Origin: a virus
Reading direction: 5' to 3' (one strand)
IMG/VR virus record: IMGVR_UViG_3300017440_000001
Coordinates: 1 to 64,000 of that record
Length of the DNA stretch: 64,000 nt
Shown here: in pieces, positions 19,539 through 19,773 of the stretch
Layout: each line of letters opens with the position of its first letter
Position numbering within the stretch: position 1 is the first letter of the stretch
Notes under the pieces: generated by a model
Told to the model about the DNA's origin: nothing
The model's input: only the letters and a program-made list of their open reading frames with translations
Database searches by the model: none
Made by a program: the position numbers and the translations under genes

Positions 19539-19773
19539 TATACGGATTTGAGGGCTTACGCCAAAAGTGTATCGTGTAAGCCCTTGATTTTAAACAGTTT
19601 TTAAGAATTATACCATTTTACTACCCTTTTTCTATTAGTATATAAAAAAGAGAGTAGAAGAAGAAAGATATATATATAGATAGTTTTCCATTTTGTGTTG
19701 AAATCCGTATAGTCGAAAAAATAAGTGAATAAAATCAACGGTTTATATCGAACACTTTTGTATCGGGAATACA
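19539..19773. repeat. AT-rich intergenic module A (inverted copy of module B at 40.7 kb)
   Basis: TATACGGATTT 19539-19549. AAAAGTGTAT 19563-19572. Purine tract plus TATATATATAGATAGTTTTC 19626-19688. AAATCCGTATA 19701-19711. ACACTTTT 19752-19759. Confidence 0.8.
19552..19591 (+). terminator. hairpin plus T-rich tract after the primase-helicase gene
   Basis: GGGCTTAC (19552-19559) pairs with GTAAGCCC (19576-19583), then TTGATTTT. The loop carries the 10-mer AAAAGTGTAT. Confidence 0.55.

Follow-up and report, generated by a model that had tools for sequence, protein, structure and literature searches.

The stretch of DNA analyzed here, positions 1 to 64,000 of the IMG/VR virus record IMGVR_UViG_3300017440_000001 (hereafter the window, 64,000 nucleotides in length), is a tailed-phage genome that carries two related intergenic modules of about 250 bp, designated A and B. 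On the + strand, the genes for RtcB, polynucleotide kinase, a DNA polymerase III alpha-type polymerase, ThyX, ribonucleotide reductase and a primase-helicase follow one another in this order up to module A. Module A is followed by a 141-aa protein, a KOW-motif NusG-like protein, tRNA-Met and then by minus-strand small genes; further on lie the terminase, a homing endonuclease, the portal, the major head protein (39140-40126), a 168-aa protein and module B, beyond which the head-closure, neck and tail genes are found. The primase-helicase gene and the parts of both modules are as follows; promoter-like and integration host factor (IHF) sites are named for their match to a consensus.

17276-19525, + strand: primase-helicase gene, 749 aa, with a Toprim_2 domain, a superfamily 3 (SF3)-type DUF5906 helicase and a C-terminal helix/strand domain of ~100 aa (PHROG and Pfam)
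19526-19774, + strand: module A as a whole, from the stop codon of the primase-helicase gene to the ATG of the next gene
19539-19549, + strand: type-2 box TATACGGATTT of A, outer left
19551-19584, + strand: terminator-like hairpin of A, AGGGCTTAC/GTAAGCCCT and then TGATTTT, after the primase-helicase gene
19563-19572, minus orientation: type-1 box of A, in the loop of that hairpin
19577-19589, minus strand: IHF-consensus site AATCAAGGGCTTA in the left arm of A, a sequence match
19607-19634, minus strand: promoter-like P1 of A, leftward, TAGAAA-16-TGgTATAAT, 10/12 positions and with TG; on the + strand the same place holds box TATACCATTTT
19620-19700, no strand: AT-rich core of A, composed of a pyrimidine run, AGTATATAAAAAA, the purine tract GAGAGTAGAAGAAGAAAGA and TATATAGATAGTTTTC
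19685-19713, + strand: promoter-like P2 of A, TTTCCA-17-TATAGT, toward the downstream gene
19701-19711: inverted type-2 box AAATCCGTATA of A, which contains the -10 of P2
19733-19745, + strand: IHF-consensus site AATCAACGGTTTA in the right arm of A, mirroring 19577-19589
19752-19759, + strand: type-1 half box ACACTTTT of A, outer right
40659-40917, minus strand: module B as a whole, between the 168-aa gene (after the major head gene) and the head-closure gene
40659-40668, + strand: type-1 box of B, AAAAGTGTAT on the + strand, overlapping the stop codon of the upstream gene
40671-40699, + strand: hairpin of B, CTGAAACCC/GGGTTTCAG, after the 168-aa gene
40719-40728, + strand: type-1 box of B, ATACACTTTT on the + strand, inverted partner of 40659-40668
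40729-40808, no strand: AT-rich core of B
40793-40821, + strand: promoter-like P1 of B, TTTAGA-17-TATAAT, 10/12 positions, toward the neck and tail genes and overlapping the type-1 box at 40809-40818
40844-40866, + strand: short hairpin of B, GCTAAG/CTTAGC, downstream of P1
40870-40879, + strand: type-1 box ATACACTTTT of B, inverted partner of 40809-40818
40893-40903, minus strand: type-2 box TATACGGATTT of B, 15 bp ahead of the head-closure ATG

The half box at 19752-19759 belongs to the imperfect inverted arms of A, which are 41 nt long (19562-19602/19720-19760). The four type-1 boxes of B form two inverted pairs, and their spacings of 60, 61, 150 and 151 bp describe a regular two-fold plan. 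The B hairpin at 40671-40699 is likely the terminator of the head operon. A 62-aa open reading frame with a TTG start (40727-40915), which spans the pyrimidine tract and lies wholly inside B, was discarded as almost certainly no gene.

The original prediction, made from the letters of the window, had described A and B as imperfect inverted copies of each other, and our analysis confirmed that A (19526-19774, +) and B (40659-40917, minus) are genuine homologues of ~250 bp each in mutually inverted orientation. Gapped local alignment of 19526-19774 with the reverse complement of 40660-40917 gave a score of 84, far above the background of 1000 dinucleotide-preserving shuffles (mean 19.9, sd 2.8, maximum 40), and the control alignment of A and B on the same strand scored 28. 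Independently, a repeat finder reported the inverted pairs 19628-19653/40776-40801 (85% complementary) and 19673-19694/40735-40756 (95%). All five sequence blocks that had been named were recovered at their positions, as were the inverted partners inside A at 19701-19711 and 19752-19759, and multiple alignment with relatives extended the homology beyond these blocks to ~250 bp. A profile built from that alignment found exactly 2 copies in the window (nhmmer E 1.3e-58 for A and 1.4e-59 for B); each copy also matched its own reverse complement weakly, and the module is thus nearly two-fold symmetric. The type-2 box TATACGGATTT occurs 3 times exactly in the window, always inside the modules, and 6 times when up to one mismatch is allowed (0.58 expected), and six of the 8 occurrences of ACACTTTT (1.5 expected) are inside the modules. 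Overall identity between module copies is 56-59%.

The modules had also been called the two most AT-rich non-coding stretches, which holds for A, the lowest-GC 200-bp bin (0.285), while the bin of B (0.375) ties with a few others. A sharper distinction was obtained from nearest-neighbour duplex stability: the cores of A and B rank first and second as the least stable DNA in the window with 60, 100 and 150-bp windows (z 4.6-4.8 for A and 4.2-4.6 for B).

Both modules are real, but their count is three, since a further copy, module C, lies in the 1,934 bp of the circle outside the window. It came to light when a box-pair pattern search of viral contigs returned a second module in a relative, upstream of early genes. 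The DNA around the SNF2-like gene of the window was then fetched and yielded a contig of 65,964 bp (L189) that is 100% identical to both window ends and adds the 1,934 bp absent from the window. The copy is placed as follows.

L189 3477-3854, same orientation as A: module C, with the profile match at about 3540-3807 (E 1.3e-25), 254-521 bp before window position 1

Module C is flanked by the true RtcB start and by the first gene of a minus-strand block, that is, by divergent early operons, so the earlier suggestion that such modules control the middle and late units was incomplete. C is oriented like A, and B is inverted; centre-to-centre distances on the ~65.9-kb circle are ~20.0 kb (C-A), 21.1 kb (A-B) and 24.8 kb (B-C). 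At the edges of C, canonical TTGACA-17 and TTGCGT-17 promoters (consensus matches) abut the outermost boxes, one facing each early operon. The contig also showed that the window begins inside RtcB, whose complete protein has 463 aa, and that the open reading frame at 57-1202 is a truncated reading of it. The phage encodes an RNA-repair pair, the RtcB ligase (57-1202) and a polynucleotide kinase/phosphatase (3546-3980), and the second gene leftward from C encodes a DNA methyltransferase (phrog_757; L189 4028-4621).

The boxes are 10-12 bp long and present in both orientations, and box maps of A, B and C place them on both sides of an AT-rich centre in opposite directions. Hairpins and sigma70-like -10 elements are found in all three copies. 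Read in module orientation, the order of features is identical in A, B and C:

First: type-2 box TATACGGATTT
Second: type-1 box ATACACTTTT, inverted, ~24 bp further on
Third: IHF-consensus site, inverted, exact in A and C and degenerate in B
Fourth: TATAAT on the opposite strand, overlapping the forward box
Fifth: AT-rich core of ~80-90 bp, a pyrimidine run and then a purine run
Sixth: inverted box
Seventh: IHF-consensus site, forward, exact in A, with 1 mismatch in C and replaced by a hairpin in B
Eighth: type-1 box, forward

An IHF binding site is characterized by WATCAANNNNTTR behind an A/T tract; the consensus WATCAANNNNTTR has 3 exact matches in the window, where 2 are expected by chance; two of the three are in A, placed symmetrically ~78 bp either side of its centre. 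The right-arm site of A is kept in the relatives L002, L005 and L004, and IHF-consensus sites, as sequence matches, are conserved in relatives and in C. GC-rich hairpins lie at the transcription entry side of A and B, and hairpins homologous to that of B, at the same module position, are present in L002 and L066.

Comparison with relatives showed that A and B are kept at the same loci. A viral contig of 66.5 kb, whose primase-helicase and capsid are 80% and 92% identical to those of the window, has both modules at the two corresponding loci, again inverted relative to each other. Further fragments of relatives carry A or B, and C is likewise found at the same locus and in the same orientation. 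Copy C in the 66.5-kb lineage is unconfirmed, because the pattern GCTATACNNNNGCTATACGGA matched A and B only in that contig. Nucleotide searches of isolated phages gave no match, either for the 5 kb surrounding A or for module C, and protein searches returned relatives of at most 46% identity and no annotated relative; the nearest capsids, 46% identical, belong to Rhizobium, Pseudomonas and Roseobacter siphophages. Capsid relatives of up to 50% identity are without the module. Searches with the large terminase and with RtcB listed 80 phages each, all unrelated and none a member of the clade, a metagenome scan with the primase-helicase alignment gave 5 loci, none from a new lineage, and the box-pair pattern in bacterial genomes gave 120 chance matches, of which 0 fit the module profile.

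The over-represented word of the boxes varies by lineage, yet A and B of any one genome agree in it: GCTATAC in L002 and L005 (5 and 6 copies), AAAAGTGTAT in the window lineage and L066, and GAATAC in L159. Similarly, core identity is 64-72% within a genome versus 54-57% between orthologues across lineages. These patterns indicate that the copies undergo concerted evolution, or that they co-evolve with one putative box-reading factor; shared box variants and alike cores would be expected if one co-evolving protein read all copies. As the copies are old (56-59% identity) and nevertheless keep the same feature order and shared variants, selection probably acts on them.

Module A is linked by inheritance to the gene upstream of it. 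In a mosaic relative (UViG_3300017682_000022, 3300017692_000006), the DNA polymerase is 97% identical in protein to that of the window, and module C is 89% identical, with 98% in the core. Comparison with L066, L075 and L168 revealed that ~17072-19775 has been replaced as one unit, with only 40% amino acid identity in the primase-helicase and 48% nucleotide identity in module A, and that 87% nucleotide identity resumes exactly at 19776, one base into the start codon after A. The mosaic relative's own module A has 8-9 boxes reading TATACACTTTTT. Based on this joint swap, A is inherited with the upstream helicase gene and not with the downstream operon. Adjacency to the helicase gene and co-inheritance are true of A and not of B and C.

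Some other phages with homologous primase-helicases have modules of their own that follow the same plan. In the distant homologue L160, a 31-nt inverted repeat (97%) stands directly 3' of the gene, its arms holding GGTTCAGGTTCA and its spacer being 73 bp of AT-rich DNA. The corresponding segments are:

L160, 12234-12368: module with the repeat GGTTCAGGTTCA
L165, 14695-14950: module with the repeat AGATCTGGATCT (contains GATC) and a pyrimidine then purine run
L277, 8540-8600: module with a pyrimidine then purine run

The same plan built on unrelated repeats suggests a family-wide architecture. In a PDB sequence search the window's primase-helicase matched the NrS-1 primase-helicase and had no detectable sequence match to the structures of Rep from Staphylococcus aureus pathogenicity islands (SaPI). 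An AlphaFold2 model of residues 591-749 (59 homologues; pLDDT 89) shows a helix-strand-helix-helix-strand-strand order. In Foldseek comparison with the PDB its neighbours are mostly winged-helix proteins, none of them significant (E 0.38-2, TM ~0.3), including ROK and PadR repressors, the replication terminator protein, RFX5 and the Cdt1 C-terminal domain. The model is consistent with a C-terminal origin-binding domain. The C-terminal 159 residues share 59% identity between the window and L002, compared with 80% for the whole protein. Covariation of this domain with the boxes was considered as a test and set aside: the swapped helicase, which is 40% identical, adjoins the same box type, and this makes the test uninformative.

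Based on these observations we tentatively interpret A, B and C, with a little less than even confidence, as diverged copies of one origin-type element with built-in transcription signals. The 10-12-bp boxes, which stand on either side of the core with opposite orientations, would be bound by a sequence-specific protein; the simplest assumption is that the SF3 primase-helicase of the phage itself takes this role through its winged-helix-like C-terminal domain. Host IHF might then bend each arm and join outer and inner boxes, and the resulting strain would open the central AT-rich pyrimidine/purine core, so that helicase rings could load on either side and the Toprim domain could prime synthesis. 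B and C may serve as extra origins or as accessory initiator sites, for example in the way that crr enhances replication in P4 or that oriR acts as a fork barrier in SPP1. The same segments would act as terminators and sigma70-like promoters at transcription-unit borders. Because the module is nearly two-fold symmetric, it would work in either orientation, and B could therefore be inverted. We lean towards this interpretation on account of the boxes flanking the least stable DNA, the IHF-consensus sites, the orientation independence and the co-transfer of A with the primase-helicase gene. A DnaA-box likeness (TTATACACT versus TTATNCACA, 8/9 positions) concerned a single box only and was dropped, and GC skew tracks gene strand and did not separate the hypotheses.

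Several observations weigh against an origin. All three copies lie at transcription-unit borders, and a perfect TATAAT stands at a fixed position in A, B and C while other boxes read TATCGT, TATTCC or TATTTT; a purely transcriptional role would account for these features equally well. Three origins would be unusual on a 66-kb phage. The analogous pyrimidine-AT-purine module of L165 and L277 is separated from the primase-helicase gene, lying ~2 kb on and just before late-side genes; that of L165 precedes a 141-aa gene and a NusG-like gene instead of adjoining the primase-helicase 3' side, and L162, L163 and L278 are without an intergenic gap after the primase-helicase gene. The winged-helix assignment is statistically non-significant (Foldseek E >= 0.38). 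Furthermore, box type and C-terminal domain do not vary together in any simple way: the 40%-identical swapped helicase stands beside the same ATACACTTTT boxes, and the 80%-identical L002 protein stands beside GCTATAC. The most complete version of the proposal, in which three homologous, near-evenly spaced origins are read by the phage's own SF3 primase-helicase together with IHF, double as terminator/promoter boundaries and are kept alike by concerted evolution, appears rather doubtful to us.

A purely transcriptional cassette is a serious competitor, which we regard as possible but clearly below an even chance. The module would consist of two weak sigma70-type promoters, P1 and P2, placed back to back, with -10 elements supplied by the boxes. 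Together with IHF sites near +25, further boxes near +40 would form a complex through which a phage or host regulator represses or activates, and the early-left/early-right, middle and tail units would be co-ordinated by the three copies in a manner resembling lambda OL/OR. This reading is favoured by promoter-like sites with 10/12 positions at homologous places in A and B, and by a TATAAT that all three copies retain at the homologous position, with -35/-10 spacings of 16 (A) and 17 (B) in what are consensus matches only. P1 in B and C and P2 in A face the genes served, and the TATAGT of P2 occurs in A only, the sole copy without another promoter for the downstream genes. Every copy stands at a unit border behind a terminator-like hairpin, canonical promoters adjoin the outermost boxes of C, itself placed between divergent early operons, L165 and L277 carry the analogous module ahead of late-side genes, a NusG/KOW-type gene is situated two genes downstream of A, and the box variants shift jointly in all copies of a genome. 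However, the best promoter match of A (TGgTATAAT, in P1) runs backwards, antisense into the 3' end of the primase-helicase gene, and B is inverted relative to A even though + strand genes flank both. The best conservation between A and B is a tract of ~90 bp upstream of both promoters and not the hexamers, and the -10-like hexamers may be a by-product of the box sequence GTATA. Nor was a regulator gene recognized beside any copy, small proteins without a family being among the neighbours: among 40 proteins near the modules, no helix-turn-helix (HTH), repressor or activator family was detected, the sole related find being the KOW-motif NusG-like protein at 20269-20724. Finally, A is exchanged with the upstream primase-helicase gene and not with the operon to be controlled. 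Of the roles first put forward, an origin or unwinding element and a regulator-binding array thus still lead; the two are compatible and not mutually exclusive.

An improbable alternative is that the modules are relics of a mobile element similar to miniature inverted-repeat transposable elements (Correia-like, with promoters directed outward, an IHF site and ends in inverted orientation), inserted in three intergenic places and since domesticated or neutral. The size of ~250 bp, the AT-richness, the 41-nt imperfect inverted arms in A, the weak self-match to the reverse complement, the IHF-consensus sites and the dispersal of three copies in both orientations would all fit. Against this, no target-site duplication is visible at the edges of A and B; A, B and C occupy fixed loci and orientations in relatives, with no empty site found within the clade; copies as old as these (56-59%) keep feature order and box variants, implying selection; and no copies occur in the 120 genome stretches with the box-pair pattern or in distant phage relatives. 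A mobile-element past of the module is possible historically.

Structured RNA, as a small RNA from P1 or as long-range hairpins between units cut by RNase III, is more improbable still. A hairpin follows P1 by ~25-60 nt in each copy, the inverted arms could pair in a read-through transcript, and of the four core strands one folds better than its shuffled versions (z -3.0), but the remaining three, and likewise the B leader, do not. The hairpins are weak (5-9 bp) and differ between copies in sequence and in position relative to the conserved motifs, and the conserved features, two-orientation boxes and IHF consensus, act at the DNA level. Rfam gave no match at gathering thresholds, and up to E 1 returned chance-level miRNA-type matches only (E 0.26-0.9). 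The RNA-processing sites initially listed among the candidate roles thus found no support, and there is no evidence for an RNA gene or for an active mobile element. Least credible is a recombination substrate, used for a 21-kb A-B inversion or as the target of a site-specific recombinase: beyond the inverted arrangement itself, with its 22-26-nt stretches of 85-95% identity and an HTH/homing-endonuclease gene between A and B, nothing speaks in its favour, and it is opposed by an overall copy identity of ~58%, by the lack of any recombinase gene found, by the same gene order and module orientation in all assemblies and relatives, and by the fact that inversion would set the head genes antisense to their flanks.

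Additional features of the window are recorded here in their own right. The 141-aa gene after A had been labelled VRR-NUC; it has no family match in Pfam, and the label is unverified because the motif behind it, PD-(D/E)xK-like, was recognized only by eye. The 151-aa protein at 20269-20724 contains a KOW motif, weakly matches the PHROG annotation 'transcription antiterminator' (NusG/RfaH-like), and is without a match in isolated phages; elsewhere in the primase-helicase family, L165 being one example, a ~140-aa gene and then a NusG-like gene directly follow the analogous module. The tRNA-Met (CAT) at 21466-21540 is the sole Rfam/ARAGORN match in the window. The packaging region is interrupted by short minus-strand blocks (22355-24086 and 26332-27586), and a homing-endonuclease-like gene (27883-28596, with HNH/HTH PHROG matches) stands directly ahead of the portal gene. 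A direct repeat of 44 nt, 91% identical (22578-22621/23046-23089), lies in the gaps before two small minus-strand genes; its minus strand reads AAAAGTGTTGACGGGG, with a TTGACG -35-like hexamer behind half of the module's box, and the repeats are probably two copies of one promoter. ACACTTTT in these repeats was considered as a general regulator site and rejected: it carries no weight because there is one independent occurrence versus 1.5 by chance, and the shared half box may itself be due to chance. A GC-rich island at 58000-59800 (0.59-0.67 versus ~0.52 overall), possibly a recent acquisition, contains a Lar-like restriction-alleviation gene together with adjacent minus-strand genes.

If the three-origin interpretation is true, one repeated element would organize replication together with early, middle and late transcription. 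The phage would be an uncommon multi-origin tailed phage in which an SF3 primase-helicase is tied to three homologous origins spread over the genome, and would offer a system for studying how initiator specificity co-evolves with multiple cis sites and how origins merge with transcription boundaries. If the modules are regulatory only, one compact cassette is reused in both orientations for three operons. Either way, they provide annotation landmarks for an uncultured phage clade without close isolated relatives.

For the transcriptional interpretation, the closest analogy is lambda OL/OR, likewise a pair of inverted homologous modules a few kb apart, with operators that overlap promoters and a sequence that follows repressor specificity. 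Each lambda module faces its own operon and the pair flanks the repressor gene. In the present phage, by contrast, one of the copies is turned backwards, a repressor was not found, and the modules include IHF-consensus sites as well as a long AT-rich core.

For the origin-type interpretation, the SaPI replication origin offers the most detailed comparison. It consists of 6-12 iterons immediately 3' of rep around an AT-rich centre, with at least 2 iterons per side in opposite directions; the SaPI helicase has a C-terminal winged-helix domain, one SaPI has a fused primase and helicase, and origin and helicase together form a specificity cassette (PMC9371898). At the sequence level module A matches this published origin description in its repeats, its AT-rich centre and its position, and the helicase would match it through its putative C-terminal winged helix. 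Module A differs in boxes of 10-12 bp compared with 5-6 bp, in the built-in IHF-consensus and promoter-like elements and in the two extra copies far from the gene.

SPP1 has two similarly built origins many kb apart, each with repeats and an AT-rich unwinding element; oriL lies in a replication gene, and oriR occupies an intergenic interruption of the late genes that is bracketed by transcription signals (PMC6316719, PMC3485210). Initiator bound at oriR has been proposed to stall forks and to switch replication to concatemer synthesis (PMC6316719, PMC3485210, PMC5737612). The placement of our modules is comparable, with A beside the primase-helicase gene and B between head and neck genes, a hairpin upstream and a promoter-like site downstream. 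In contrast to our modules, origin binding in SPP1 is the task of gp38, a protein distinct from the DnaB-type helicase and from the loader. The SPP1 repeats are direct, and its origins number two and not three; there is no sequence relationship between them and the modules.

The alpha protein of P4 unites primase, SF3 helicase and a C-terminal origin-binding domain in one polypeptide, and P4 ori and crr are two clusters, 4.5 kb apart, of the same short repeat (octamers), both acting in cis, crr being no independent origin. By analogy, our phage resembles P4 in its primase and SF3 helicase polypeptide and in repeats arranged in separated clusters. Herpes simplex virus has three palindromic origins per genome (oriL/oriS) with an AT-rich centre and inverted boxes for an origin-binding helicase; they lie between divergent genes, the helicase belongs to superfamily 2, and two of the three copies are inside large inverted genome repeats. 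The likeness lies in the three copies, the AT-rich centre and the inverted boxes, and with a eukaryotic virus it is an analogy only.

Helicase-origin cassettes have so far been characterized mainly from satellites (SaPI, P4) and not from large lytic-type phages. The combination of repeats and an unwinding element, be it an origin or a control cassette, is of a kind already known, and what is unusual here is the presence of three dispersed copies, their apparent concerted evolution and their fusion with transcription boundaries.

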